This document shows, in pieces, positions 48,831 through 64,000 of a stretch of 64,000 nt of DNA. The stretch is taken from NCBI GenBank assembly GCA_963693055.1, contig OY843751.1, positions 5,472,001 to 5,536,000 on the forward strand. The letters are read 5' to 3'. Numbering within the stretch: position 1 is the stretch's first letter; the number at the start of each line of letters is the position of its first letter. The notes beneath the pieces were generated by a model that was given only the letters and a program-made list of their open reading frames with translations, did no database searches and was not told the origin of the DNA. The translations under genes and the position numbers were made by a program. The stretch is from a bacterium. Lineage in GTDB: Bacteria; Zhuqueibacterota; Zhuqueibacteria; Residuimicrobiales; Krinioviventaceae.

Positions 48831-50120
48831 TTATATCACTGTTCCATCAGGAATTACTGCATTTTTGGTCACAATTACAATTCCATCCCTAATCCAGTAA
48901 CCATTCTTGTCATCTTCATATTCTTCAAGATTATTTTTATTTATAATCCTCACATTCTGACCAATTCTCGCATTCTTGTCAATTATTGCACGTTTAATAA
49001 AGGTATTTTTCCCTATACCCAAAGGGATCTCTCCATTTTCATGTATTTCTTCACGCCTTTCAGCAGATTCAAAATAATCGTTTCCTAAAATCAGAGAATC
49101 TTCAATGGTCACATTTTCTGACACAAAAGAACGAACACCCAAAATTGAACGTCTGATTTTGGCATTGATCACTATACATCCTTCAGAGATCATGGTCTCT
49201 GTCAATTCCGTATTTACCAGCTTGCAGGGAGGTAAAAAGCGTTGACGCGTAAAAATAGGGGCATTGGTTTCATAAAAACTAAAATCGGGATTATCGTACT
49301 TTGTAAGATCAATATTACATTGATAATATGCACCAATGGTACCAATATCTTCCCAGTAATCATTAAACAGATATGCCTGAACGTTATATTCACCAATAGC
49401 ATGAGGGATAATCTCTTTACCAAAATCCTGCTGGTCTACCAGTTCAGTCAAAAGTTTAATTAACGCGTCCCGTTTAAACACATAGATTCCCATAGACGCA
49501 ATATAAGGTTTGCGTTCTGCCTCTTCAGGAGTTAGCCCCAACACCGTAGTATCAACTTTCATTTCCTGTAAAGCCTGACCCTTTGGCTTTTCTGAAAATT
49601 CTACAATGGCACCTTTGTCATCAATTTTCATTAATCCAAAATCAGAAGCTTTTTCTTCTTCAACCGGAACAACAGATATTGTGAGATCTGCTTTAGAATC
49701 CCGATGCTTTTTAATAAAAGGACGGTAATCCATACGATACAAATGATCTCCGGATAATATCAAAAATTCACTTACCGGAACTTCTTTTATCGTATGTAAA
49801 TATTGTCGGACAGCATCAGCAGTACCCTGAAACCAATCAGAACGTTCAGGAGTTTGCTGAGCAGCAAGTATCTCAATAAATCCCTCAGAAAAGGGTGAAA
49901 AATGATACGTCAGGCCAACATGTCTGTTCAAAGACGCAGAATTAAATTGGGTCATGATATAAATCTTTTGGATGCCTGAATTGATACTGTTACTGATGGG
50001 GATGTCAATCAGTCTGTACTTTCCGGCCAGGGGAACTGCAGGTTTTGCCCTGAGTTTTGTCAGTGGATGTAGACGTGTACCTCTACCCCCTCCCAAAATG
50101 ATAGTCATCACGTTGCGCAT
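48831..50120 (-). CDS. glgC: Glucose-1-phosphate adenylyltransferase (ADP-glucose pyrophosphorylase)
   Basis: [32 protein letters not shown] and YWEDIGT motifs. Confidence 0.97.
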
Positions 50121-50218
50121 ACAACTCTCCCTTTTATTAAGCTGATGTTAAACTCAAGTATAATTCAATATAGAAAGTAATTTATAGAAATGCCATAAGA
50201 AAAAGAAAATATATTTAT

Positions 50219-50243
50219 AAAAAAAAGCCGCTTTCGCGGCCTT
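50219..50243 (-). terminator. Intrinsic terminator after smc-GWxTD
   Basis: GCCGC-GAAA-GCGGC followed by a T-run on the minus strand. Confidence 0.8.
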
Positions 50244-50246
50244 TTC

Positions 50247-51752
50247 TTAATACATATTACTATTATAAGTAGATTCGTTATCAGGATATATCCAACGCTG
50301 CCATTGGGCATCGTACAACTCGCCTCGAGCGGTAGAGTGTACCAATTCAAAATCTCCCATACCCCGGCGGTCAACAAAAGCAAAAGCTACACCACCCTGT
50401 AAATAATGATATTGCCAGATCTCATAAGGCCGTGTTTCCATGCCTGACGGATGTCTTTCAACTTCATCAGGTTCACCATAGATAAGCAATATTCTTCCAC
50501 GGTCACTTTTCCAGCCTTCTTTAAAACCACCTTTATAATTGTTATTGGCCTTTTTAACCCGACCCAAATAATCTTCTTTAAATTCATTTGCATCTGTTCC
50601 GGGTGTTCTGTCTCTTCTTGACCAAAAAGACCTTATAAACTCTTTTTTTCCATCATGATTTAATCGTTTATAGGTTGATTTTTCTTCCCGGGTTGCAATA
50701 TACTTGGCTATATCAAATTCTTTATCAATTTCTTTTTCAGACATTACATCATAACGATGCGCGTCCAGTCCGGCACTTCCTTCTCCTGTGATTTCTTCCT
50801 TGTTGGCATACAACTCTCCACCTTCTTTGAAATCACCATCACGGTAAACATAAAATTTACGTTTAAAATTGGCTTTCTGGCCTGACCCTTTATCTTCCAC
50901 AATAGTATTCAAAGTATAAGGCCCCGAAACCAATGTGACTACATTAATACTATTAACCTCTACCGAAGATTTGCCGGGTTTTTTTCTCAATTTTTCAGGT
51001 AATGATTTTACTTCTTTACCATCCCGATCAGAGATAGTATAGGAAACACCATAATACTGACCCGAATCAGATTCCGATGGAACCAAATTATAAACTTCTG
51101 CATAGCAATAAAGCATTGGAAGCCCTATTCCATACAAATAAGATGGATTGGGTATAATTTGAAATCCATTTTTAACAAATGGATTATTTGCCTCACTTCT
51201 TGATATGGAAGATGCAAATTGAACATCAGAAATTAATAATTTTTCATTATCAAAAGGATCTATTTTGACAGGAAACTCTCCACGCGCAACGCTATTTTCA
51301 TTATTAGGATCAGAAACTTTAACTTTGAGTTTATAATCTCCAGGATTTAGTACAAAGCTGCTGATGGTATATAAACGCTGGTTGTAATTTATTTGTCCCA
51401 GGCTGTCTACTGTGTTTGCATTCATCCACTCTTTTTGAGAAATAACCGAATCACCCTGCACAAGCTCCGATGAAACCATAAATTTCCCCATGTATTGATT
51501 ATTCTCAGTTTCAACAAACTGTAACATGGATTGAAAAATCGCAATTGAATATTCCAGATAGGTTAAACTGTCTGCATATCTGAAACGGTTCATATCCAGG
51601 GCAAATTCAAACCGTTGAGTTCCAACTGCAGAACTATCTTCTGCCGCAGGGGTGGCAGCTTCATTTTGAGCAAACAACAGGGATACATCGCTTGTCAGCA
51701 ATATTACCAGACTGACAATAAGAAAAAGCCCTTTAACTTTGTTGTTTTGCAT
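50247..51752 (-). CDS. GWxTD domain-containing exported protein
   Basis: Signal peptide; FW..RD.TP.T..NE....Y..R...AN and GWKSDRGRI...YG.P motifs. Confidence 0.88.
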   Translation of the reverse strand: MQNNKVKGLFLIVSLVILLTSDVSLLFAQNEAATPAAEDSSAVGTQRFEFALDMNRFRYADSLTYLEYSIAIFQSMLQFVETENNQYMGKFMVSSELVQGDSVISQKEWMNANTVDSLGQINYNQRLYTISSFVLNPGDYKLKVKVSDPNNENSVARGEFPVKIDPFDNEKLLISDVQFASSISRSEANNPFVKNGFQIIPNPSYLYGIGLPMLYCYAEVYNLVPSESDSGQYYGVSYTISDRDGKEVKSLPEKLRKKPGKSSVEVNSINVVTLVSGPYTLNTIVEDKGSGQKANFKRKFYVYRDGDFKEGGELYANKEEITGEGSAGLDAHRYDVMSEKEIDKEFDIAKYIATREEKSTYKRLNHDGKKEFIRSFWSRRDRTPGTDANEFKEDYLGRVKKANNNYKGGFKEGWKSDRGRILLIYGEPDEVERHPSGMETRPYEIWQYHYLQGGVAFAFVDRRGMGDFELVHSTARGELYDAQWQRWIYPDNESTYNSNMY

Positions 51753-51770
51753 GGTTACCCTCCTTTTAAA

Positions 51771-54700
51771 TTATTCGGCAGGTACTGCCTGTTCATTTTG
51801 GGTTATTTCCAGTGCAGAATCAAATTTGACCGAAACCACTTTTGAAACACCCTGCTCTTGCATGGTTACACCATATAGCTGCTTTGCAGCCCGCATGGTA
51901 AGCTTGTTATGGGTAACAACAATAAACTGGGTATTTTCCGAGTATTCCTGCAATGCCTTTGCAAAACGGTTCACATTTAAATCATCCAGTGGTGCATCAA
52001 CCTCGTCAAAAATACAAAATGGACTGGGTTTTACAAGATAAATGGCAAACAAGAGGGAAACAGCGGTCAATGACTTTTCACCACCAGACATAAGTGCCAA
52101 TGAGGATAATCTTTTACCACCCGGTGTAGCAAAAATATCAATATCTGCCTCAAGTGGATCATCACCCTCTCTCAGAACAATATCAGCTCTCCCACCCTCA
52201 AAAAATGTTTTAAAAACCTCTGAAAAATTCTTTTTTATTTCTTCAAATGTACCAACAAACTTGTCCCTGGCCGTTTTGTTAATCAGGGTAATTGCGTCTT
52301 TAAGATCTTGGCGCGCCTTGATTAAATCGTCTCGTTGGGTTGTTAAAAATTCAAGACGTTCCTTTTCCTTTTCAAATTCTTTCAATGCTAAAAGGTTTAC
52401 AGGACCAAACGCTTTAATCTTTTCTTTTAACTGCGTTATAGTGTCTTTAGTTTCAGCATAATCAAAATTTTCTTCAACAAGTTCTTTTTTTAATGTATAT
52501 TCATATTCTTCAATCATTCTGCTTTTCAGGTTCTCTACATTCATTTTCAACTCTGAAATGCGCAATTCTACCTGGTGAACAGATTCAGACAATACTTCAG
52601 ATCTTGATCTTATACTTTTAATATCTTTTTCATTCACATCAACCTGAACGTTGATCTGGTATTGCTGTTCTTTTAACGATTCAAGACTTTTATGTATCTC
52701 TTCCCGCTTTTCTGCAAGCTCTTTAATATTTTCCTGATACGTTTTATTTATCTCATCAAGCTCTTCTATTTCTTCACCGGCACGACGTGTTTCTTCTTCA
52801 CGAAGCTGGATCATCCGGTTCGCTTCATGCAACTGATTTTGTAAGGAATCAACCTCTCGCTGACGAGATTCATAAACACTTTGCATTTTCGCAACTTTGA
52901 CCTGCATTTCCTGAACTATGCCGGCTGCCTGATTCAACTTGTCTTCAAGCACCTTTTGTTCTTCATTCAAGACCTGGGTCTGTTCTGCAACTTTTTGACG
53001 CTTGGTTTCAATATCCTGAGTATCTGAACTTTTATTTTTCAGGTTTTCATCAACCTGCCCCATTTGTTTTATCAGGTTTTGCTTTTCATTATCCCGGTCT
53101 TTTAGCAGCTCTTTAATTGATTGCTCTTCAAACTGCATTTGACCCAATTCAAGACGCTTTGACGATACAAGTTCTTCCAGGCTATGAATAGAAACGGACA
53201 ATGCCTCAGCTTCGGAAGCAGCTGCGCTGATCTGCTCATTGCGTTGAGCAATAATCAAACGTCTCTGTTCTACAGTTGCTTTCAACTGTTCAATCTCTTC
53301 CAAAAGCTCTTTTAATTGCTCTTCACGCCCTACAAAGTCCAGTTGCTTTTTATTCAGGCTACCGCCTTTAACAATACCCCAGTAACCCAGTACTTCTCCA
53401 TTTAATGTAACCAGGTTGGTTTTATGTCCTTTAAAAGAATCAAACAACCTGTTGGCAGTTTCAAGATCTTGCACAATCAAAAAATTACCGAGAAGTAAAT
53501 CTAAAATGGGTTGATATTGAGGTTCACATTGCACAACCTGGTTCGCCCAGCCAATAATTCCCAGGTCATCAATTTTGGGTTGATCAAGCACGGATGCTTT
53601 AATTCGTTTAAAAGGCAGAAAAGATGCTGTTCCCTTTTTATCCTGCTGTAACAAACCAATACCGTTAAAAGCTGTATTCATATCTTCAACGATCAAATAT
53701 GTGGCAGCATCACCCAATGCGGCGGCAACTGCCGGACGATATTCTTGCGGCATGTGCAAAAGATTGGCAATAGCACCAAATGTATGAAAATGATCAGTCT
53801 GATTGGTGGCAAGATATCGAACCCCTGCCGGGTAATCCTGGTAGCTTTCCAGCAACCGCTTAACCATTTCAGCCTGATTTTCAAGCACTTCAATACGGTT
53901 CCTGTCCTGCATCTCTGATTTTTGCAGACTTTCCAAAGAGCTTTTTGCTTCAAGGGTCTCTTTGTTTATTTTATCAAGGTTACTTTTTTTCTTTTGTAAC
54001 TCTTCTTCAAGGGATTGTTTTTGTTCATCAGTAGATTTGATCTGCTCAACCAACTCGCCCAGTCGTCGGGTTTGGTTTTCGCTTTCTTCAGTAATCTGCT
54101 TTAAACGGCTGCTCAGGTTTTCCTCGGTAGCTTTTAAGCGCTCACCTTCGTTTTGGGTACGGCTTAATTCTTCGGTATACCGAAGCACGAGCATTTCCGC
54201 TTCTTTTACCTGACTGCGTTTTTGTTCATACTCTTCACGTAAATTTTTAAACTGATCGTTATGAATTTCATATTTTTCCTGAGCTGCCAAATGTTCTTTT
54301 TTGGCATTTTTTAGGTCATAATGAGATTCATCGCTGGTTGTTGCAAGTTCTTCCGCGCGGGTTTTTTGCACTTTTTGTTCTTCAACATAACGGTCGCAAG
54401 CTTCTTTCAAACTGCGAATACGTTCACTGTTTACAAGAATACGTTCTTCAAATTTTTGTATTTCGTGATTCTTTGTATTATAATCCCGCTGGCCTTCTGA
54501 TAATTTCTTTTCAAGATCCAGCAGTGTATTGCGAAGAGACTCGAAGGAAGTTTCATGCTTTACAAGATTGGTAGATATTCCTTCACGCTCATCACGTATT
54601 ACATTAAATTTTTCCTGCAAAGGATCAAGCTCATTCATCAATCTTGCATATTCATATTCTGCAAACAAAATTTCCAGTTTTTTCAACTCGCCGGAATATT

Positions 54701-55349
54701 CCTGATATTTTTCAGCTTTGGAAACCTGCCTTCGTAAAGACCGGGTGGTTTTTTCCACTTCTGACAAAATATCTTCTATACGAAGCAGATCTTTTTCTGT
54801 ACTTTCCAGCTTTCTCAAAGACGCTTTGCGACGAATTTTATACTTTGTTATTCCTGCTGCCTCTTCAAATATTTTTCTTCGTTCTTCAGGCTTACCGTTC
54901 AACAAACGTTCAACCTGGGGCAGCTCTATTACAGAATAAGAACCCAAGGCCATTCCCGTATCCATAAACAAATCGTTTATGTCTTTTAAACGACATTGGT
55001 TTCCATTAATCAAATACTGACTTTCACCGGAACGAAACAAACGTCGGGTAATCACAACCTCAGAATAATCAACAGGCAAAAGATTGTTGGTATTTTCGAC
55101 CTTGAGAGATACTTCAGCCATACCTACCGGTTTTGCGCTCGCGGATCCGGCAAAAATAACATTATCCATTTTATCACTACGTAAAACGCCACTTTTTTGC
55201 TCACCCATTACCCATCGAATGGCGTCTACTATATTGCTTTTACCACAGCCATTAGGCCCCACAATAGCCGTCATACCATCATGAAAAACCACATGAGTTT
55301 TTTTGGCAAAAGACTTGAATCCCACAACATTTAGTTCTGCTAACTTCAC
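51771..55349 (-). CDS. smc: Chromosome segregation protein SMC
   Basis: GFKSF, GPNGCGKSN, long coiled coils with a hinge, MSGGEK and DEVDAPLD. Confidence 0.98.
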   Translation of the reverse strand: MKLAELNVVGFKSFAKKTHVVFHDGMTAIVGPNGCGKSNIVDAIRWVMGEQKSGVLRSDKMDNVIFAGSASAKPVGMAEVSLKVENTNNLLPVDYSEVVITRRLFRSGESQYLINGNQCRLKDINDLFMDTGMALGSYSVIELPQVERLLNGKPEERRKIFEEAAGITKYKIRRKASLRKLESTEKDLLRIEDILSEVEKTTRSLRRQVSKAEKYQEYSGELKKLEILFAEYEYARLMNELDPLQEKFNVIRDEREGISTNLVKHETSFESLRNTLLDLEKKLSEGQRDYNTKNHEIQKFEERILVNSERIRSLKEACDRYVEEQKVQKTRAEELATTSDESHYDLKNAKKEHLAAQEKYEIHNDQFKNLREEYEQKRSQVKEAEMLVLRYTEELSRTQNEGERLKATEENLSSRLKQITEESENQTRRLGELVEQIKSTDEQKQSLEEELQKKKSNLDKINKETLEAKSSLESLQKSEMQDRNRIEVLENQAEMVKRLLESYQDYPAGVRYLATNQTDHFHTFGAIANLLHMPQEYRPAVAAALGDAATYLIVEDMNTAFNGIGLLQQDKKGTASFLPFKRIKASVLDQPKIDDLGIIGWANQVVQCEPQYQPILDLLLGNFLIVQDLETANRLFDSFKGHKTNLVTLNGEVLGYWGIVKGGSLNKKQLDFVGREEQLKELLEEIEQLKATVEQRRLIIAQRNEQISAAASEAEALSVSIHSLEELVSSKRLELGQMQFEEQSIKELLKDRDNEKQNLIKQMGQVDENLKNKSSDTQDIETKRQKVAEQTQVLNEEQKVLEDKLNQAAGIVQEMQVKVAKMQSVYESRQREVDSLQNQLHEANRMIQLREEETRRAGEEIEELDEINKTYQENIKELAEKREEIHKSLESLKEQQYQINVQVDVNEKDIKSIRSRSEVLSESVHQVELRISELKMNVENLKSRMIEEYEYTLKKELVEENFDYAETKDTITQLKEKIKAFGPVNLLALKEFEKEKERLEFLTTQRDDLIKARQDLKDAITLINKTARDKFVGTFEEIKKNFSEVFKTFFEGGRADIVLREGDDPLEADIDIFATPGGKRLSSLALMSGGEKSLTAVSLLFAIYLVKPSPFCIFDEVDAPLDDLNVNRFAKALQEYSENTQFIVVTHNKLTMRAAKQLYGVTMQEQGVSKVVSVKFDSALEITQNEQAVPAE

Positions 55350-55549
55350 TATTATCCTAATATTAAAAATTTATACAAAATCAAAAACGAATACCTAAAA
55401 CTAAACAAGATACGACCCACAGCGTCAAAAATCAAGTATATTTTCCGGTAAAATTTGTACCGCTTTCCTTCTGTAAGATAAATTTACTATAACCTGATAT
55501 TTTTTTTATTTTCATATAGATATATTATTGTTAAATTTATACAACAATA

Positions 55550-55897
55550 ATGAAAGGTACTTTAATGGAAAAAAATTCAAAACGGGTTTATTCCACCAAT
55601 CCTCATACTAGAATAGAACAGGAAACCCAGGCAGAAATTCCTGACAAGCCATTATCGGGGCAAACCGTCAAGATCCGTATTGACAGTAAAGGACGTAAAG
55701 GAAAAAGTGTTACGATTATTGAAGGATTACAGGTGAATCCAACCCATTTGAACGATATTGCCCGCCAGCTAAAACAATTACTGGGAACTGGTGGAACCGC
55801 AAAACAAGGTGTAATAGAAATACAGGGTGACAGACGTGAACAAATCATCACCCATTTGGAAAAATTAGGTGTCAAATGTAAAAAAGTGGGTGGATGA
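55550..55897 (+). CDS. yciH: Translation initiation factor SUI1/YciH family protein
   Basis: VYST, KGRKGK.VT, LK...GTGG and IEIQGD motifs. Confidence 0.92.
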   Translation: MKGTLMEKNSKRVYSTNPHTRIEQETQAEIPDKPLSGQTVKIRIDSKGRKGKSVTIIEGLQVNPTHLNDIARQLKQLLGTGGTAKQGVIEIQGDRREQIITHLEKLGVKCKKVGG

Positions 55898-55918: not shown

Positions 55919-57568
55919 TTATCGGTTAATAACTATATCCCGAATTGATAAAAATCCATCCAACCTTCTTTGTACCGTAAAAGAATTAGTATCTACAATC
56001 TTGATCTTTACCAGTTGATTTGTACCATTATCACCAATCCAGCATTCACCTGTTGACTTTTCTATGGTTAACACCTGGGGTTTAACAAACTGATAATTTC
56101 CGTTAAGAGCATGTTTTTGCAATACATTGTTTATTTCAAACAGTTCCAAATCTCCGCTTGCATTAATGACCAGCACCATATCAACCAAATTGACTGTAAT
56201 TACACCTAAAAGCTGTGGAGATGCAGACAATGGACTCACTGGCGCCAGCCGTTGGTATGTACCATCGCGGAAACTGAATCGTTCAATCTGATTATCATAC
56301 GTGTCAGCAATAAATACCTGAGATAAATCCACATCAGTCCGATGATGTATAAACAAATCCATGGGGCCATTAAAATCGGTTGTAAAATCCATTGCACCTT
56401 CGCCCATAACAGTATCTCCCAGGGCAATCATATGGTGTAACGAATCCGGCAGTGTATCAACGCCTTCTGTTATATTGAATTGAATTACACGGTTATTGCC
56501 TTCTTCTACTATCCACACATCACCATTATATTGATTGATATCTATTTGCGTTGGTTGTTCAAAACCATAAATGGTTTTCTCTACATTACCCGTGCGCTGA
56601 TCAATGACAGTAACAGTACCATCATTATAACTCAACGCCCACAATTTTTGTGTATATTGGTGTAACGCTATATCAATCACATGAGAAATTCCGGAATAGG
56701 TTTCAAGCTGATTGCCATTATAATCCAGCTTATATACCTGATCAGAACCCTGATCTGCCACAAAGCATCCACCTAGCTCGTCAACAGCACCTGCAATTGC
56801 AACAGGGGAAGAAAACGACTGTGAGGAAGTCAAAATCTTGTATCCATTACTGGTATATTTGGTCAGTGTTTTATGGTCGCTATCAACAACCCATAACGAT
56901 CCATAATTCGAGTATACAAGAACATCCAGTGTATCAGAAGAAGTAAAATTTAACTCATCAGAAACAAAAACCGCAATTTTGTAAACCTCCGATCCACCGG
57001 TATTTGATGGAGATGTCCAGACTGCTGTAGAATCTGTATCTTCAGCATGGTCTAACTCACCTGTCTCATCTAATACTTTGAATAAATAGGTCAACTCACC
57101 GCCTTCAGGGTCTGTAGCACTACAAGCCAAATTTACAGAGTTACCAGACACAACATGCTCAGAGCTCACGGTAAAAGAATTGATTTTGGGCGGAGCGTTA
57201 CCCACGTAAATGATAACTTCTTTATGGGCCACTCCTTCTTTGGTATCTGTTGCTGTAGCTATAATAGATACAGTAGCAGTATCCATGGGTGCAGTCCAGT
57301 CAATAGATGTACCATGCGTTTGCGACAATTCACCGGCAGAGACTTCCCAGGTAACGGTTACCTCGTCATTCTCATCAGGATCATAAATTTCAGCTGTAAT
57401 GGTCTGAGTGGTACCTATATCAGGAGTAGTATCTTCTACTTTTAATAATATAGTCGGACGGGTATTGGGTTCAACACCCGTTAATGTATCATATAATTCA
57501 CATCCCCACATACCAGAGGCCACCAGAACTATTAGAATTTTGAGAACGTGTTTCATTAAATTATCCAT
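55919..57568 (-). CDS. Lipoprotein with two Ig/PKD-like domains and an NHL-like beta-propeller
   Basis: Lipobox-like ASGMWGC; two A.DP(D/E)...W.(A/S)P Ig-like units; repeats of WV.D..N..(V/L) with P..I. Confidence 0.7.
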   Translation of the reverse strand: MDNLMKHVLKILIVLVASGMWGCELYDTLTGVEPNTRPTILLKVEDTTPDIGTTQTITAEIYDPDENDEVTVTWEVSAGELSQTHGTSIDWTAPMDTATVSIIATATDTKEGVAHKEVIIYVGNAPPKINSFTVSSEHVVSGNSVNLACSATDPEGGELTYLFKVLDETGELDHAEDTDSTAVWTSPSNTGGSEVYKIAVFVSDELNFTSSDTLDVLVYSNYGSLWVVDSDHKTLTKYTSNGYKILTSSQSFSSPVAIAGAVDELGGCFVADQGSDQVYKLDYNGNQLETYSGISHVIDIALHQYTQKLWALSYNDGTVTVIDQRTGNVEKTIYGFEQPTQIDINQYNGDVWIVEEGNNRVIQFNITEGVDTLPDSLHHMIALGDTVMGEGAMDFTTDFNGPMDLFIHHRTDVDLSQVFIADTYDNQIERFSFRDGTYQRLAPVSPLSASPQLLGVITVNLVDMVLVINASGDLELFEINNVLQKHALNGNYQFVKPQVLTIEKSTGECWIGDNGTNQLVKIKIVDTNSFTVQRRLDGFLSIRDIVINR

Positions 57569-57570
57569 TA

Positions 57571-58218
57571 CTATTTATAGGTTTCTGATACAATATAAAT
57601 TATTCTAGACAATACCGCTTCAAACGAAAAAAAAGTCTGATTTTCAATAATCCAGGTTGCAGAAGCATCAGGATCAATATAATTAAAATCGGATGTTAAT
57701 TTTTGCACCGTTGTCCAAGATGCTTTGTATTGACGTGTAAAATATTGTGATTGCGTTTTCATCAACAACATATCCCGCCAGTCAATATTCGTATCATAAT
57801 TGAATACATATTTAGGAAAAGATTTAACAAAATAATCAACGAGTGGAGTAATCTCGTCAAATCTCTCCTGATTAAATTTTGCCAGTATAATACCAGCACG
57901 GCAATCTGATTCAGGAGCAGCGTCTGTCATTGCATTTTCCAAAGCATTAATGGCAAGCTGATAATGATTGCTGCCTTTCATTAACAATGACCACCCTTTA
58001 CCCAAATTGGCATTACCATTTGAAGGTTCTTTAACCAGTGCCTGATCAAAATATGACTTGGCATTATCATATTTATAATTTTCGAATTCATTCCAGCCGG
58101 AACTCAATAGTTCGTCTACACTTGAACCTGAACCACCCGGGTTATCCGGTTCTGTGGGACTTGAACCGCAATGGAAAGACAGAATTCCAGCAATCAATAT
58201 ATACATTAATCTCTTCAT
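57571..58218 (-). CDS. TPR-containing lipoprotein
   Basis: Signal ending LSFHC-GSSPTEP; GW..F....Y..A...F..AL...P...NA.LG.GW (TPR). Confidence 0.72.
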   Translation of the reverse strand: MKRLMYILIAGILSFHCGSSPTEPDNPGGSGSSVDELLSSGWNEFENYKYDNAKSYFDQALVKEPSNGNANLGKGWSLLMKGSNHYQLAINALENAMTDAAPESDCRAGIILAKFNQERFDEITPLVDYFVKSFPKYVFNYDTNIDWRDMLLMKTQSQYFTRQYKASWTTVQKLTSDFNYIDPDASATWIIENQTFFSFEAVLSRIIYIVSETYK

Positions 58219-61200
58219 CGTATCAACAGCACCTTTTGAGTTAATACATTATCTCTTGTTTGAATTTGAATAAAATATACTCCGGACGGAACAGGATTGG
58301 AAAATTTATTCATCCCATCCCATGAAAATTCTTGTATTCCTGTTTCCAGGGAATTGTATTCATGAACAAGTACTGCCTGACCCAGAATATTATAGATCCT
58401 CACATCTGCTTTACCCGCACCGTTCAATAAATAACGTATCTTTACACGGCTATTGAAAGGATTGGGATAAGATGCAATCTTGGCCTTTAAAACATACTCT
58501 TCAGTAGCAGGCATATCCGACGTTCCAAATGTAAATGACCTGTCCGTTTCAATGGATGCATAGTACATCCCTTCACCATCGGTACTGGTATTTACAGATA
58601 ATAGCTCACCGTTTTCTACATAATAAAAAGAATAATAATTGCTTCCGCTATTTACAGATGGTTTTGCCCGGGTCCAAACATTTTTACCAGGGCCATTATA
58701 TGACAAAGTATAAACTTTGTTTTCATTATTGGTTTCTTTGAGGATGTATACATCCCGTTCATTTGTAGTCTCGGGGATATCTACCAACAACTGCCGGTCA
58801 GAACTGGTCAGCGTTTTGCCCAAGCCTTTACCCAGAATCGTAGTTAACCACAAACTGTCCTTAACAGTCAATCCGCTTGCATAACCAAATTCAAGATTTA
58901 GCTTGTACAAGCCCGAACTTGACAGAATATAGGGAGATGTCCAAATCTTTTGTGTTTCTGTTGAATCAATCATTTTAAAATTCAACGCCAAAGAATCTCC
59001 GTCAAATTTAAAAGAATAACCCATATCCGAAACATTTGCATCTGCATTGATTACAAAATTAACCTTGTTCGACACAATAGAGTTAAAGAAACAAGAAACG
59101 TTCGTCTTTCGGGAGACCGTAACATTAATCAGGTTTGAGATTGAACTGGTATCCTGATTCGTTGCCTTAAAGATCACAGGAGATGTACCACTAAAGCCAT
59201 CTACACCCGAAATGGTTACCTGTGTTGTATTGCTATTGATATTTACATTCAAGTCACGATTATCATATTCGGCGGAAAATGTGATTTCATTCCCACCGGC
59301 AATACAAAAGCGATTTAAATATAGTGATGAATATATTTGTCCACTGCTAATCTCAATAGGTGGAATGGTTCTCCAAACGGGTTCTCCGCGTTTGGCAATT
59401 GTAACAATAACCGTATCAGATGTTGAATATCCGGCGAGGTTGGTCGCTGTAAAGATGACCATCTGATCACCAATTTTATCAAAAGTGGATATTTTAACAA
59501 GATTCTCTTCTGTTTTCACAATATCTAAATAGAGATGATTATAATCAATACGCCAGATAATCGACGAGTCCGGTGTTGAAAAATCCCAAACATAATCATC
59601 AAGATCCACATATTCCTGAGGTATCAGCATTTTCCAATAGTAATACGCATCCGGCAATGGCGTCATGAAAACAGGATTAGGATTGTACTCGATACAGTTT
59701 ACGTACAACTTTTGAGTTGCTATATCTCCATCTGGATTTTGCGCAACAATGTTCAAACTGTCAAGACCCAAAAACACAGTATCTGCCGAAATGGTAACCT
59801 TGTGTGTTAATGAATCAATTCTTACTCCTTTTAAAGAGTCACCGCCTGAATACCCAAAAGACAGTTCATCAATAGAATACAGAGGATCAACAACATAATC
59901 GTTTAAATCCAAAACATCCAAATCCATACCCTGCATAATGGTCACTTGCGGGAACGGAAAGATGGAAATTTGATTTTCAGACAAAACTTTTAACAACGTT
60001 TTACCGGAATCCCTGTTTTCATTACCGGCAGAAACCGTGACATAGAGTTCGTCAATTGCCAAATGTCCGTCAATAGCTGAAATGGTTAATACTTGTTGAT
60101 CTGAATTGTAGGATAATATTACATTTGTATCTTCCTGTAATGTTTTTGAATCCAACACTTCAAAAGACCAAATCAATTCAGATTTTATATTACTGGGATA
60201 ATCAACATAATTATTTAGGAAAATATCTTTTGATTGTCCCGAAATCACTATGATAGTAGGAATAGGTAACAACTTGACCGGAGTTGGCTGAATATTCACC
60301 GTTACGGTAGAAGAATCCATAGCCATTTCATCGTCCATTACGGTAATTTTGATATCAACATTGCCTGAGAATTGAGAATTCAAGGCTTCAAGCCTTAATA
60401 CATTGTCATTAACAAATTCCGCTACCAGGTAATCGGTATTCATAGATTCCACTGACCAGGTAAATTCCGTATCATCCACATCATTAACATAAACACCATT
60501 CTGCATCGTAATTTGTTTCACTACACCATAGAAAACAGGTATGGGATCCAATTCTGAAAAATCCAATTCCGGAGGATCATTTATGGGTAATACATTAATG
60601 TTAATAGTTGCTCTTGTTGTATCATTCACCAGCCTTTGGACCGGATCCTGAACGACCAGTTCAGCGGTTGAATTGCCAGACCAATTCGGTGCGGCAGCAA
60701 ACCGTATCGAATCACCCGCCTCTTCAATAACAAGGTTGCTTGAACCGGGCGTTACTTCTATATCAGCATAATCATCATCCAGGTCTGTAAAGAAATAAGA
60801 CTTGGAGAGCATTATCACTTCATCTTCATTAAACGTTACCGTTGGTATAGAACTGTGGAATTCAGGGACATGATCAACTCCAACAGTAAATTCCTGGCTG
60901 TCTACATAATTGGTGTTTTTTTGCACACCTCGCACGTTCAGCTTGAGAACACCTTTGGTCGTTGGGGTTGTCGTTACCGTAACTAGCGTGTCATCAAGCG
61001 TGGGTACCGCTCCGCTCAGGGCTTCCTGTTCCGTCATGCTCCAGCTTATTTCAAAGTTGTCTGAATTACTGGTTACATGATTATTCAGATTCAACTCATA
61101 GTTTGTACCCGGTGCTATCAAAGTATCCGGAAATTCAGGATAAATTCTAAAACCGGCAATAAACATACTATAGTTCATAAACTTGCCAAAACGCTGCTCA

Positions 61201-61772
61201 TTGCTGGGCTCATCAAGTTTGTAATATGTTGTAAGGCGGTTGTCGTCATTTTTAAAGTCAAAGGTTATAGCGGTTGAATCATTCGCGTTATCTGGCATAC
61301 CCACAACTCGCAATTTAAATGATGCAACAATACCCGTTCCTTTAACACTGGGTCGAACACCATTCAAAATGGATCCGGTTGATTGATAATAATCCATTTG
61401 GAAATCATCAATTCCATTACCCCAGCCAGGCTGGTCTGACAAATGCAAACTGTCTTGGTGTGTACTGTTAATAACGGCATCACCGGTCATTTCTATAAAT
61501 CTACCCGGTGTAAAAGGTTTACCAAACGGAAGGTCACCAGGGAAAACAGGCTGTAAAAATTCAGGATCTATAGTAATATAAGACGTAACACCTGTAATTC
61601 TTTCCCCTTGGGTGTCAATCATAATGTTGAATTTGATCTCGTCACCGATATACACAAGACGCGATTGATTCATATCTGCTCGTTCAATCCAGATCTCTGC
61701 ATTACCGGCAAAAGCCAAAATCGGATAGGCAATAAATACCCACAAAAATAATACTAGTCTATTATTCTTCAT
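58215..61772 (-). CDS. Large secreted protein: cohesin-like N-terminus, tandem Ig/cadherin-like repeats, T9SS type A/FlgD-like C-terminal domain
   Basis: Signal peptide; repeats with DL.DYV.D; C-terminal YPNPFN...IYNILGQ...WDG......PSGVYF......KVLLIR. Confidence 0.75.
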   Translation of the reverse strand: MKNNRLVLFLWVFIAYPILAFAGNAEIWIERADMNQSRLVYIGDEIKFNIMIDTQGERITGVTSYITIDPEFLQPVFPGDLPFGKPFTPGRFIEMTGDAVINSTHQDSLHLSDQPGWGNGIDDFQMDYYQSTGSILNGVRPSVKGTGIVASFKLRVVGMPDNANDSTAITFDFKNDDNRLTTYYKLDEPSNEQRFGKFMNYSMFIAGFRIYPEFPDTLIAPGTNYELNLNNHVTSNSDNFEISWSMTEQEALSGAVPTLDDTLVTVTTTPTTKGVLKLNVRGVQKNTNYVDSQEFTVGVDHVPEFHSSIPTVTFNEDEVIMLSKSYFFTDLDDDYADIEVTPGSSNLVIEEAGDSIRFAAAPNWSGNSTAELVVQDPVQRLVNDTTRATININVLPINDPPELDFSELDPIPVFYGVVKQITMQNGVYVNDVDDTEFTWSVESMNTDYLVAEFVNDNVLRLEALNSQFSGNVDIKITVMDDEMAMDSSTVTVNIQPTPVKLLPIPTIIVISGQSKDIFLNNYVDYPSNIKSELIWSFEVLDSKTLQEDTNVILSYNSDQQVLTISAIDGHLAIDELYVTVSAGNENRDSGKTLLKVLSENQISIFPFPQVTIMQGMDLDVLDLNDYVVDPLYSIDELSFGYSGGDSLKGVRIDSLTHKVTISADTVFLGLDSLNIVAQNPDGDIATQKLYVNCIEYNPNPVFMTPLPDAYYYWKMLIPQEYVDLDDYVWDFSTPDSSIIWRIDYNHLYLDIVKTEENLVKISTFDKIGDQMVIFTATNLAGYSTSDTVIVTIAKRGEPVWRTIPPIEISSGQIYSSLYLNRFCIAGGNEITFSAEYDNRDLNVNINSNTTQVTISGVDGFSGTSPVIFKATNQDTSSISNLINVTVSRKTNVSCFFNSIVSNKVNFVINADANVSDMGYSFKFDGDSLALNFKMIDSTETQKIWTSPYILSSSGLYKLNLEFGYASGLTVKDSLWLTTILGKGLGKTLTSSDRQLLVDIPETTNERDVYILKETNNENKVYTLSYNGPGKNVWTRAKPSVNSGSNYYSFYYVENGELLSVNTSTDGEGMYYASIETDRSFTFGTSDMPATEEYVLKAKIASYPNPFNSRVKIRYLLNGAGKADVRIYNILGQAVLVHEYNSLETGIQEFSWDGMNKFSNPVPSGVYFIQIQTRDNVLTQKVLLIR

Positions 61773-61830
61773 GTTTCCCAAATATTTTTTAAACCAAAAA
61801 CCAAAAAATCTTTCTGCTCAGCCTTTTATA

Positions 61831-61847
61831 TGCAAAGGGCATGCCAG
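61831..61847 (-). promoter_or_regulatory. sigma54 (-24/-12) promoter of the 61772-55919 operon
   Basis: CTGGCATGCCCTTTGCA with exact GG-N10-GC spacing. Confidence 0.78.
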
Positions 61848-61980
61848 CCCAGCGCCCTACATTACGCACACAACTCTATATAAAACAACATATTAAAACA
61901 ACATAAAATTCTAACAACAAGAATCCATCCACTTTTCAAGTAAATTAGATCATTAAACCGGGTAGTTTTTACCCGGTAAC

Positions 61981-62014
61981 AAAAAGGCCCCGTGGGATAA
62001 ATCCCACAGGGCCT
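61981..62014 (-). terminator. Intrinsic terminator after the last gene
   Basis: Minus strand reads AGGCCCTGTGGGAT-TT-ATCCCACGGGGCC-TTTTT. Confidence 0.8.
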
Positions 62015-62040
62015 CGCCATGAAGAGAATGAACCAGAAAT

Positions 62041-64000
62041 CTATTTCAGTAACAGCATCTTTTGAGTGCCAATAACATTGTTGTCGACTTCAAGGCGATA
62101 AAAATACATACCAGAACTTACTTTGCGTCCGAAATTATCTTGAGCGTCCCACATAGCTTTGAAATTACCAGCAGCCATCTCTGTGGAAACCAGGGTACGA
62201 ACTTGTTGTCCCAGCATATTATAAACTGTAAGTGTAACATTGCCAGCTTTAGGCAGAGCGAACTCGATCGTAGTTGTTGGGTTGAACGGGTTCGGATAGT
62301 TTCTGCTCAGACTGAATTCAGTCGGCAATGCGTTTTCTTCATCTTCAACGTCGCTTGAAATAACCGGAGTATTTGCACGGCCATAAGCATCTACCAACTT
62401 GATATCTTGCAATTTCAATTCAGTTGGATTTTCAACTTTGGCTTTTACTGTAAAGGTTACCAATGTCGGGTTCATCTCTTTTGAAGCTACTCCCTGATAA
62501 CCGGAGCATACAAAGTCATGATTGTAACCAACAACTTTGGTAAAGAACAGTTTAGATTCAGTATTGTGCAATGCTTCTGTATATTCTACCAGTTCCCATG
62601 ATTGAGCATCAATAAAGACCTGTGCAGAATAAGCCTGCAATACCGGGAAATTTTTAGCAACAACTGCATAGGTAATGATATTTTTATCACGTTTTACCTC
62701 TACCAATTCAGCAAGTGTTTCTGCACTATTAGTAGAAGTAGCTTTTTTATAAAGAATACCTTCACCATTTCCTACTGGAGTATTGTTGGCAACAAAGCGA
62801 ACATCTTCAACATCAATGTAATCATCACCGTTAACATCACAATACATATTCCAGTTAGTATCCGCAGATGTTGAGTGGAAAGCACCTTCATATACAGTGT
62901 GGTCTGTAGCATTAACCTGATTGTCAGGCAGAGACTGGGTATCTGTGTCACCATCATCATCGTAACCAGCACAGTCACCACCAAGCAGTCTGTCATCATT
63001 ATAGAAATCAACAGTGGTTGTAGAATAAGCCTGTACTACTACTGCTGATTCTTTTTGATCCAACCAACCAGTTTTATGTACAAGAATATCATATTTACCA
63101 GTTGGAACAGAAGTTAACAAATAACGTCCGTTTGCATCCAGAGTAACTGATAAACCGTCTGATACATCACTGTCGCCATTAGCTGCAACAAAAGAAGCAT
63201 CCGTAATATTGTCATAAGAACCAGTAGGACAAATCCACATTACTACAGTCTGGCTAGAGTCACTACGGCCTTCAATATCAATTAAACCGGTGAGCTTGCC
63301 ACGAGGAGTCATGCTCAATGTAGAAGCTGCAGGAGGTACATTTGCAGTCAACTGGGTAAAATCAGCATCAAACATTCTGCTTGTGCGTTCGCCAGTTGTA
63401 TTAAAAGTAATTGCTGCGCTTTCCAGGGCTTCACTGACAGCATCAGTTTTTGCATAAATCTGGAAGGTTGCTATAACTTCATCGTTCAAATCGGTTTCGG
63501 TTGCAAGGTCAGAAGCATGACGAATCAAGTCCAATTCGTAATGATCTGTAGAATCAGCCGCAATATTTTTTGTAGTTGTTCCAGCAAAATTTGTAGTATT
63601 GGGAGTAAAACCTTCAACAACTGCTGTACCTGTATTCTGATCTACAATACCGTAGAATTCTGAAGGTACATTCAAATAGGTCTCCAACCACATTACATCG
63701 TTGCCACCACCTGGATTCGCATCAGATGCATAGACAGATATGGTAAGTGTATCACCTTTTTCCATTACAATCTGGGTGGGTTCCATTCTAAAGTTATAGG
63801 TACTGTTTTTATCTACAGCGCCAGAGAAAAAGAGTTTTCCGTCTGCCTTAACAATTCCATCGTCTGCTGCATCAATAGCATTCCAGTTTTCAGAACCAGC
63901 GCCTTCAGCACTACCTGTATCATACAAGTACCATACATCGTAATTACCGGAAGGATCAACAACTGTTCCGGCCATATCTTCTGTTATATCACTAACATCG
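62041..64000 (-). CDS. Secreted T9SS/FlgD-type CTD protein with cohesin-like, carboxypeptidase-regulatory-like and dockerin-like modules (5'-truncated)
   Basis: The frame is open to the window edge. It has EF-hand-like pairs GD...DNQVNATD and CDVNGDDYIDVED, and CTD LPTEFSLSRNYPNPFNPTT...SSGMYFYRL...KMLLLK. Confidence 0.78.
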   Translation of the reverse strand, partial: DVSDITEDMAGTVVDPSGNYDVWYLYDTGSAEGAGSENWNAIDAADDGIVKADGKLFFSGAVDKNSTYNFRMEPTQIVMEKGDTLTISVYASDANPGGGNDVMWLETYLNVPSEFYGIVDQNTGTAVVEGFTPNTTNFAGTTTKNIAADSTDHYELDLIRHASDLATETDLNDEVIATFQIYAKTDAVSEALESAAITFNTTGERTSRMFDADFTQLTANVPPAASTLSMTPRGKLTGLIDIEGRSDSSQTVVMWICPTGSYDNITDASFVAANGDSDVSDGLSVTLDANGRYLLTSVPTGKYDILVHKTGWLDQKESAVVVQAYSTTTVDFYNDDRLLGGDCAGYDDDGDTDTQSLPDNQVNATDHTVYEGAFHSTSADTNWNMYCDVNGDDYIDVEDVRFVANNTPVGNGEGILYKKATSTNSAETLAELVEVKRDKNIITYAVVAKNFPVLQAYSAQVFIDAQSWELVEYTEALHNTESKLFFTKVVGYNHDFVCSGYQGVASKEMNPTLVTFTVKAKVENPTELKLQDIKLVDAYGRANTPVISSDVEDEENALPTEFSLSRNYPNPFNPTTTIEFALPKAGNVTLTVYNMLGQQVRTLVSTEMAAGNFKAMWDAQDNFGRKVSSGMYFYRLEVDNNVIGTQKMLLLK

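Follow-up and report, generated by a model that had tools for sequence, protein, structure and literature searches.

Type II cohesin-dockerin pairs serve the anchoring of C. thermocellum-type cellulosomes, as described in the available part of PMC12484212. In the clostridial systems (CipA on SdbA/OlpB, and ScaA on ScaB in A. cellulolyticus; 2b59, 5g5d, 3kcp, 4fl4, 4u3s), a cohesin, an X-module and a dockerin are found on one protein, and the partner carries an N-terminal type II-like cohesin, a spacer and a C-terminal surface anchor. A comparable arrangement is present at the end of a 64,000-nucleotide (nt) stretch of bacterial DNA (the window, G000:C1:5472001-5536000), which is part of a single-contig 6.5 Mb genome (G000, the source genome). 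According to the list of open reading frames (ORFs), four genes, all co-oriented on the minus strand, occupy positions 55919-64000 of the window and extend beyond its end. Genes 1 and 2 (g1 and g2) encode large proteins that end in a type IX secretion system (T9SS) C-terminal domain (CTD), and genes 3 and 4 (g3 and g4) encode putative lipoproteins; close orthologs of these genes carry the label candidate division KSB1. The cassette is real and conserved, is apparently undescribed, and is a variant of the known cohesin-dockerin anchoring. Its pair of binding modules is predicted to be specifically type II-like, with an X-dockerin on g1 and an N-terminal cohesin on g2. We give an even chance to the reading that g2 is an anchoring stalk, which holds g1, a probably abundant non-catalytic coat protein, through a cohesin-dockerin clasp.

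Compared with clostridial anchoring, the host is diderm, a T9SS CTD takes the place of SLH or sortase attachment, two lipoprotein genes are attached, and in g1, calcium loop 1 contains an insertion and the dockerin is followed by another, putative cohesin. Tandem type I cohesins, a carbohydrate-binding module and dockerin-bearing glycoside hydrolases, which belong to the clostridial systems, are not seen in the cassette. With two cohesins on g1 and one on g2, the cassette as read from its sequence would fall outside the definition of a cellulosome, which comprises a tandem-cohesin scaffoldin and dockerin-bearing polysaccharidases. No catalytic domain was found in g1 or g2 by Pfam and fold searches; a first-pass annotation of the window had reported no hydrolase motif, and this also holds over the full length of g1.

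In Chlorobium chlorochromatii, the neighbouring genes Cag_2037 and Cag_2038 encode a protein with an N-terminal type II cohesin and immunoglobulin (Ig) repeats and an Ig-rich protein with a C-terminal dockerin, respectively, and in the accessible part of the preprint their binding is modelled and unmeasured (bioRxiv 10.64898/2026.03.19.712371). Compared by description only, this pair resembles the cassette in its diderm host of the Fibrobacterota-Chlorobiota-Bacteroidota (FCB) group and in its adjacent cohesin and dockerin genes. However, Cag_2037 is a repeats-in-toxin/type I secretion system (RTX/T1SS) protein with an alginate lyase-like domain, whereas g2 has a T9SS CTD and only Ig/cadherin-like matches. 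The proposed anchor is the dockerin protein in Chlorobium and the cohesin protein g2 in the cassette, and neither a CTD nor a lipoprotein pair is described for the Chlorobium proteins in the same part of the preprint. For Ca. Stygibacter (Cloacimonadota), the excerpted text of PMC8542988 describes a cellulosome-like structure with a 3755-aa tandem-cohesin scaffoldin and dockerin-bearing enzymes. This system from an FCB candidate phylum likewise places cohesins and dockerins on secreted T9SS-CTD proteins, whereas the cassette is one dedicated pair with no enzyme.

The surface layer (S-layer) of Tannerella forsythia, as presented in the consulted portions of PMC10202324 and PMC4175972, is a non-catalytic coat of two T9SS-secreted proteins, TfsA and TfsB. 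By description, the likeness lies in the two T9SS-secreted coat proteins, whereas g1 and g2 look unequal in expression on the basis of codon usage. PMC10202324, a review that covers T9SS S-layers, mentions cohesin or dockerin 0 times and calls the T9SS restricted to Bacteroidota; the T9SS cargo and the SprA and PorU proteins of the source genome lie outside that phylum. A genome survey of cellulosome carriers omitted metagenome-assembled genomes (PMC11557425, in its available part), and in the partially covered literature no description of the cassette was found, nor any paper that links cohesin to KSB1, cohesin and dockerin to Latescibacteria, or dockerin to Marinisomatota.

Domain architecture of g1

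The proteins of the window were scanned against Pfam, and profiles from ortholog alignments, structure models, Foldseek and VIA-align were then used. In the Pfam scans, neither Cohesin nor Dockerin_1 exceeds the cut-off in the window's own proteins, and the domains were therefore tested with ortholog alignments. Against Dockerin_1 (PF00404), g1 scores 14.3 and 16.8 bits, under the curated 22.9, and E<=0.01 is reached in 5/24 orthologs. The 24-sequence profile of g1 residues 995-1180 matches 4wi0_B and 4u3s_B in the PDB at E 6e-13, followed by 5g5d_B, 2b59_B, 3kcp_A and 5k39_B. The model of this region aligns to 4u3s_B with a Z of 13.1 and a root-mean-square deviation (rmsd) of 2.7 over 149 residues, in which both the X and the dockerin parts are matched; the profile and structure matches across 4u3s_B/4wi0_B place the X-module N-terminal to the dockerin and fused to it. 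Of the dockerin's two Ca-binding loops, loop 1 is lengthened by approximately 10 inserted residues; two helices are seen in the model, and the Ca-ligand aspartates D112, D129, D136, D158 and D169 are invariant in 24/24 orthologs.

The AlphaFold2 model of g1 residues 825-1304 has a predicted local distance difference test score (pLDDT) of 86. Its top Foldseek matches are the Coh9-X-DocII fragment of CipA (4fl4_C, E 2.3e-13; 3kcp_A, E 4.1e-13), with a query TM-score of only 0.33 and an rmsd of 8, which indicates that the domain orientation of this part of g1 differs. Cohesin 1 is modelled as a nine-stranded jelly-roll that aligns to solved cohesins with a Z of 15.0 and an rmsd of 2.2-2.5 over 138-140 residues; cohesins of type I and of type II alike match it (Z 12.4-15), so the fold leaves its type unsettled. 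Hhalign with deeper profiles relates it by homology to the cohesin of g2 (96.4%, E 1.1e-9); a cohesin-cohesin comparison with shallow profiles gave just 12.8%. Cohesin 2 has no direct match in PDB or Pfam profile searches. Its profile is matched by four distant relatives (P0103, P0110, P0123 and P0145), which exceed the Pfam Cohesin cut-off just before their CTD, and through this transitive link the last domain of g1 before the CTD may be a cohesin.

The first-pass annotation saw just the last 652 aa of g1 and had proposed cohesin-like, beta-sandwich, dockerin-like and second cohesin-like domains and a CTD; these calls are supported by the deeper profiles and the model, for the second cohesin through the transitive link, and the cohesin jelly-roll and dockerin fold that it had expected from structure prediction are both seen. 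Inspection of the sequence past 64000, which it had recommended, gives the complete 1416-aa protein in the order signal peptide, approximately five beta-sandwich domains, cohesin 1, X-module, dockerin, cohesin 2 and T9SS CTD, with a calculated isoelectric point of 4.05. The beta-sandwich domains occupy residues 41-830 (model pLDDT 77), and no Pfam family is found in these N-terminal ~790 aa in any of 22 members. Foldseek returns generic Ig-rich chains for this body, and the S-layer entries 7ptp and 9g93, at a TM of ~0.15, were discounted; an Atlas search gives a best score of 0.79, which is a lead only. Between the congeneric loci L001 and L017, g1 is 86% identical and g2-g4 are 96-98% identical, and the g1 differences gather in the N-terminal third (residues ~40-330), as for an exposed variable region.

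A G-x-G-x-x-Y-K motif follows the g1 dockerin, and its K or R is kept in 24/24 orthologs. This residue is a possible cleavage site, which would free g1 with a C-terminal dockerin. Among 194 CTD proteins, the Lys motif was not found as a general feature before CTDs, and its g2 counterpart is missing in 2/9.

The N-terminal cohesin and proposed stalk of g2

The g2 protein consists of an N-terminal domain, approximately seven Big_9/cadherin-like repeats, as counted from the alignment, and a T9SS CTD. The 22-sequence profile of the N-terminal domain retrieves 8 PDB sequences at E<=10, all of which are cellulosomal cohesins of type II entries, with modest E values from 0.0038 (5g5d_A, the best) to 0.46; a shallow profile returned nothing. 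These matches point to a cohesin of the type II-like kind. Pfam Cohesin is reached in 3/22 orthologs, and the domain is kept at the N-terminus in 22/22 aligned orthologs, with conserved polar residues on the inferred binding strands (Q 21/22, D 20/22 and R 22/22). The motif ITGV..YITIDP, by which the domain had first been recognised, is present in g2. In the stalk, Big_9 is matched in 2/9 members and a cadherin-like family in 1/9, and tandem-95 is below the cut-off.

A D-[ST]-small/hydrophobic motif, which we take to be the O-glycosylation sequon of Bacteroidota, occurs in g2 above expectation in 19/19 loci (~2-fold in most) and below expectation in g1; in the CTD proteins of the source genome overall, it stands at 1.02 of expectation. 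The g2 protein may be a glycosylated stalk.

Predicted binding of g1 and g2

The complex of the g1 X-dockerin, the g2 cohesin and two calcium ions was predicted in three runs, together with three controls. The score is 0.40 (runs 0.57, 0.30 and 0.40), compared with 0.00 for the best control, at a pass mark that is reached by 116/157 solved complexes and 2/215 mismatches. The pLDDT of the partners is at least 79, and the runs share at least 0% of their contacts. For the complex-model check put forward in the first-pass annotation, the pairing of the g1 dockerin with the g2 cohesin is thus weakly supported. In the solved complexes 5g5d, 2b59 and 4u3s, the g1 X-dockerin profile matches one chain and the g2 cohesin profile matches its partner.

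Conservation of the cassette

The order g1-g2-g3(-g4) recurs in KSB1 (6/167 genomes) and Marinisomatota (~20/401), as found with search profiles that were partly built from the counted loci. In KSB1, the same 6 genomes carry g1 at full length, the cohesin of g2 and close orthologs of g4; a seventh genome has one partial g1 match, and 55 further genomes have weaker g4 matches. Among the 401 sampled genomes of Marinisomatota, 22 have g1, 25 have the g2 cohesin and 20 have both, and in the five cases with g2 only, a contig edge lies at or near the upstream side of g2, one of them showing a g1 tail. At the 39 mapped loci, g2 follows g1 in 24, and three have g1 copies that lack g2; g3 follows g2 in 28/29 informative loci, and g4 follows g3 in 24/27, the remainder being cut by contig ends. 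The flanks of the cassette differ among KSB1 family f1, KSB1 G137 and Marinisomatota, and synteny inside the genera labelled g1 and g5 was discounted because the flanks there are syntenic too. The synteny expected for the four genes is kept across two phyla with changing flanks, although g4 is not always adjacent.

An initial search for relatives was swamped by CTD matches. A search of 1.84 billion representatives with the g1 C-terminal profile yields 119 clusters at E<=1e-30. Cohesin 1 and the X-dockerin occur in 91 of 144 new library representatives, 45 of which also have most of the N-terminal body, and one relative in the wider family is labelled Gemmatimonadota. No hydrolase or protease family is found at E<=1e-6 in 24 hand-picked long relatives.

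Transcription signals and codon adaptation

A hairpin like the one after g1 in the window (Table 1) is seen by eye, with no scoring, in nearly all 24 loci. The motif TGGC-N7-TTGC, which by its consensus is presumably a sigma-54 site, is present upstream of g2 in 16/24 loci, compared with 0.09 expected from shuffles, and before g1 in 4/19 loci having 650 nt available; the source genome has a second motif of this type 299 nt upstream of g1, beyond the end of the window. RpoN is encoded in the source genome (rpoN), in which 35 genes have a strict motif upstream, including dnaK-like and grpE-like genes and several genes for secreted proteins. In codon adaptation to ribosomal-protein genes, g1 ranks 21/3419 in the source genome, g4 1007 and g2 1161, and a Sharp-type measure places g1 above g2 (and g4) in 19/19 loci, four of them near zero. 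From these signals, g1 looks separately transcribed and far more highly expressed than g2-g4.

Other cohesins, dockerins and T9SS proteins in the source genome

Each cassette profile (X-dockerin and g2 cohesin) finds a full-length match in the source genome in its own gene only, and the other X-dockerin matches cover the X part alone. Elsewhere in this genome, five Dockerin_1 and four Cohesin matches are over the Pfam cut-off. Read from sequence, without a family or carbohydrate-active enzyme (CAZyme) scan, the five other dockerin proteins are a subtilisin-like peptidase, a LamG-like protein and three FG-GAP-like proteins; no glycoside hydrolase is seen among them by this reading, and the dockerin half of the cassette profile has no match among them. 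Three secreted repeat proteins (G000:C1 4018588, 1390306 and 1393786) end in a dockerin without a CTD and may be brought to the surface by binding to a cohesin. In two further proteins (G000:C1 1728119-1730452 and 5212790-5222932), one of 3380 aa, the CTD is directly preceded by a dockerin-like motif plus a cohesin, a tail that recurs in KSB1.

The T9SS type A CTDs reported for both large proteins score 41.3 (g1) and 47.1 bits (g2) against TIGR04183, with a cut-off of 23, and the genome encodes the translocon protein SprA and two copies of the sortase PorU, all over the cut-off. Because approximately 200 CTD proteins (201-207 by motif) are present, a CTD alone is ordinary in this genome.

Proposed arrangement and alternative explanations

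In the proposed arrangement, g1 would be an abundant, acidic, non-catalytic coat subunit, held through calcium-dependent binding of its dockerin to the cohesin on the g2 tip. The g2 stalk would be tethered at the outer membrane, with the cohesin at its free end and the CTD as its anchor, and by analogy would act like the clostridial anchoring scaffoldins SdbA/OlpB, with the CTD in place of SLH. Transcription of g1 would be separate and strong, and g2-g3-g4 would form a lower-level sigma-54 operon. Both large proteins would cross via SprA and be processed by PorU, g3 (plus g4 where present) may chaperone or anchor g2, and many g1 molecules could pack into a coat via their beta-sandwich domains and spare cohesins. 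We hold it possible but doubtful that the result is an S-layer of new build, common to KSB1, Marinisomatota and related uncultured phyla, in which stalks keep a T9SS-exported lattice protein off the outer membrane, with a type II cohesin-dockerin clasp of the cellulosome kind joining it to the stalks and perhaps also to itself.

In genomes of uncultured FCB-group bacteria, cohesin-dockerin matches are usually taken as a sign of cellulosome-like degradation. The cassette, a conserved operon with a dedicated type II-like pair and no enzyme, points to a structural role in the envelope, which would place the CipA-type anchoring module in a non-cellulosomal context and give KSB1 and Marinisomatota their first candidate for a surface coat. 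The g1/g2 pair could also serve protein engineering as an orthogonal clasp.

Several observations weigh against g2 as the anchor of a g1 coat. In the complex prediction, scores of at most 0.60 at the pass mark comprise 18/157 solved complexes and both passing mismatches, and because like cohesin-dockerin complexes are already solved, the pass may reflect likeness only. The g1 protein has its own CTD and may therefore need no anchor, the real partner of its dockerin could be the cohesins on g1 itself, and the dockerin-cohesin-CTD tail is also found on unrelated KSB1 proteins. The fold search of the g1 N-terminal body gives generic beta-sandwich matches only, with a best Z of 9.2, and in VIA-align only the first domain of this body is well tested. 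At three loci, a total of four g1 copies lack a neighbouring g2. Kinship among the carrier genomes also means that the counts are not independent. Seven other CTD proteins outrank g1 in codon adaptation (g1 is 8/201), and the Sharp-type measure, which is uninformative genome-wide in the source genome, puts g1 at 939/1923. The codon adaptation of these seven equals or exceeds that of core housekeeping genes, and they are competing candidates for a coat protein. The g1 paralogs without g2 (L133 in G265, L143 in G363:C12 and L145 in G513) comprise two copies in tandem, one that stands alone and a shorter one of 1075 aa, and may be variant coat genes.

An alternative that we regard as unlikely is that g1 self-polymerises, with its dockerin bound to cohesin 1 (or 2) of the next g1 and g2 merely starting or ending the polymer. 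A dockerin and a cohesin homologous to that of g2 are both on g1, they occur together in the 91/144 new representatives, and extra g1 copies exist without g2; high g1 and low g2 expression, as judged from codons, also suits many subunits per anchor. However, against type II cohesins the profile of cohesin 1 gets no better than E 0.54, compared with 0.0038 for the g2 cohesin, and the cohesin 1 positions that match the conserved Q/D of the g2 cohesin stay <75% conserved. It is quite unlikely that no intermolecular clasp exists and that g1 and g2 are independent T9SS surface proteins, with the dockerin-cohesin 2 part as a self-folding unit or an extended export signal. Although similar tails on unrelated proteins of the source genome (1728119 and 5212790), the complex runs with as little as 0% of contacts in common and the CTDs on both g1 and g2 agree with this explanation, it leaves unexplained the type II-like cohesin at the free N-terminus of g2 in 22/22 aligned orthologs, the strict co-occurrence of g1 and g2, and the invariant calcium ligands of the dockerin. 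A small cellulosome-like scaffold, with g1 anchored by g2 and the cohesins of g1 recruiting dockerin-bearing enzymes from genes elsewhere, would suit the five other Dockerin_1 and four Cohesin matches over the cut-off and the CTD-bearing scaffoldin proposed for Ca. Stygibacter (PMC8542988, excerpted text), but is less likely still, with two cohesins and no tandem array on g1 and with dockerin proteins that read as peptidase-, LamG- and FG-GAP-like and do not match the cassette dockerin half.

Putative lipoproteins g3 and g4

In the Pfam scan, g3 has tetratricopeptide repeat (TPR) matches below the cut-off, and g4 has weak NHL/Ig matches; the g4 profile also matches beta-propellers in the PDB. 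Lipoprotein signals (a Cys after a hydrophobic stretch) are read from both sequences, and the g4 Cys is invariant in 6/6. These weak family matches, the propeller match and the signals agree with the original description of g3 as a TPR lipoprotein and of g4 as an Ig plus beta-propeller lipoprotein. The g4 gene is dispensable in one subgroup, and 3/27 informative loci are without an adjacent g4. Distant g4-like genes in family f14 and at locus L073 are stand-alone and were rejected as cassette members.

Gene layout and flanking genes

The features of the cassette are listed in Table 1. The ORF coordinates agree with the four co-oriented genes, the 1185-aa g2 and the ATGA overlap with g3 that had been reported; the overlap is 4 nt, with the g3 start over the g2 stop.

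Table 1. Positions of the cassette genes and their features in the window
Feature	Position	Strand	Remarks
g1, 3' part	62041..64000	-	full ORF 1416 aa, genome G000:C1:5534041-5538291, 2291 bases past window
g1 cohesin 1	63301..63810	-	residues ~828-997; fold match of model
g1 X-module and type II-like dockerin	62752..63309	-	residues ~995-1180; profile and structure match
G-x-G-x-x-Y-K motif after g1 dockerin	62746..62766	-	start of low-confidence linker
g1 cohesin 2 (putative)	62380..62736	-	residues 1186-1304, directly before CTD; all-beta in model, transitive Pfam link
g1 T9SS type A sorting domain	62059..62298	-	TIGR04183 41.3 bits, cut-off 23
Intrinsic-terminator-like hairpin and T-run after g1	61981..62014	-	read from sequence
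Sigma-54-type -24/-12 motif before g2	61832..61846	-	TGGC-N7-TTGC
g2	58215..61772	-	1185 aa from ATG; 1188 from upstream TTG
g2 N-terminal cohesin (type II-like)	61137..61706	-	residues 26-215 of TTG frame; profile vs PDB
g3, TPR lipoprotein	57571..58218	-	215 aa
g4, lipoprotein with two Ig-like domains and NHL-type beta-propeller	55919..57568	-	549 aa

Upstream of g1 and outside the window (G000:C1 5540671-5551577), six family 2 glycosyltransferase-like genes form a run that also holds flippase-like, methyltransferase and radical S-adenosylmethionine (SAM) genes, labelled by reading, and that is syntenic in genus g5 only. This cluster was rejected as a part of the cassette, as it lies upstream in the source genome but is not kept beside the Marinisomatota cassettes. 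The genes at 48831-55897 of the window are of the housekeeping kind and comprise glucose-1-phosphate adenylyltransferase-like and SMC-like genes (labels by reading) and genes for a GWxTD protein and YciH/SUI1.

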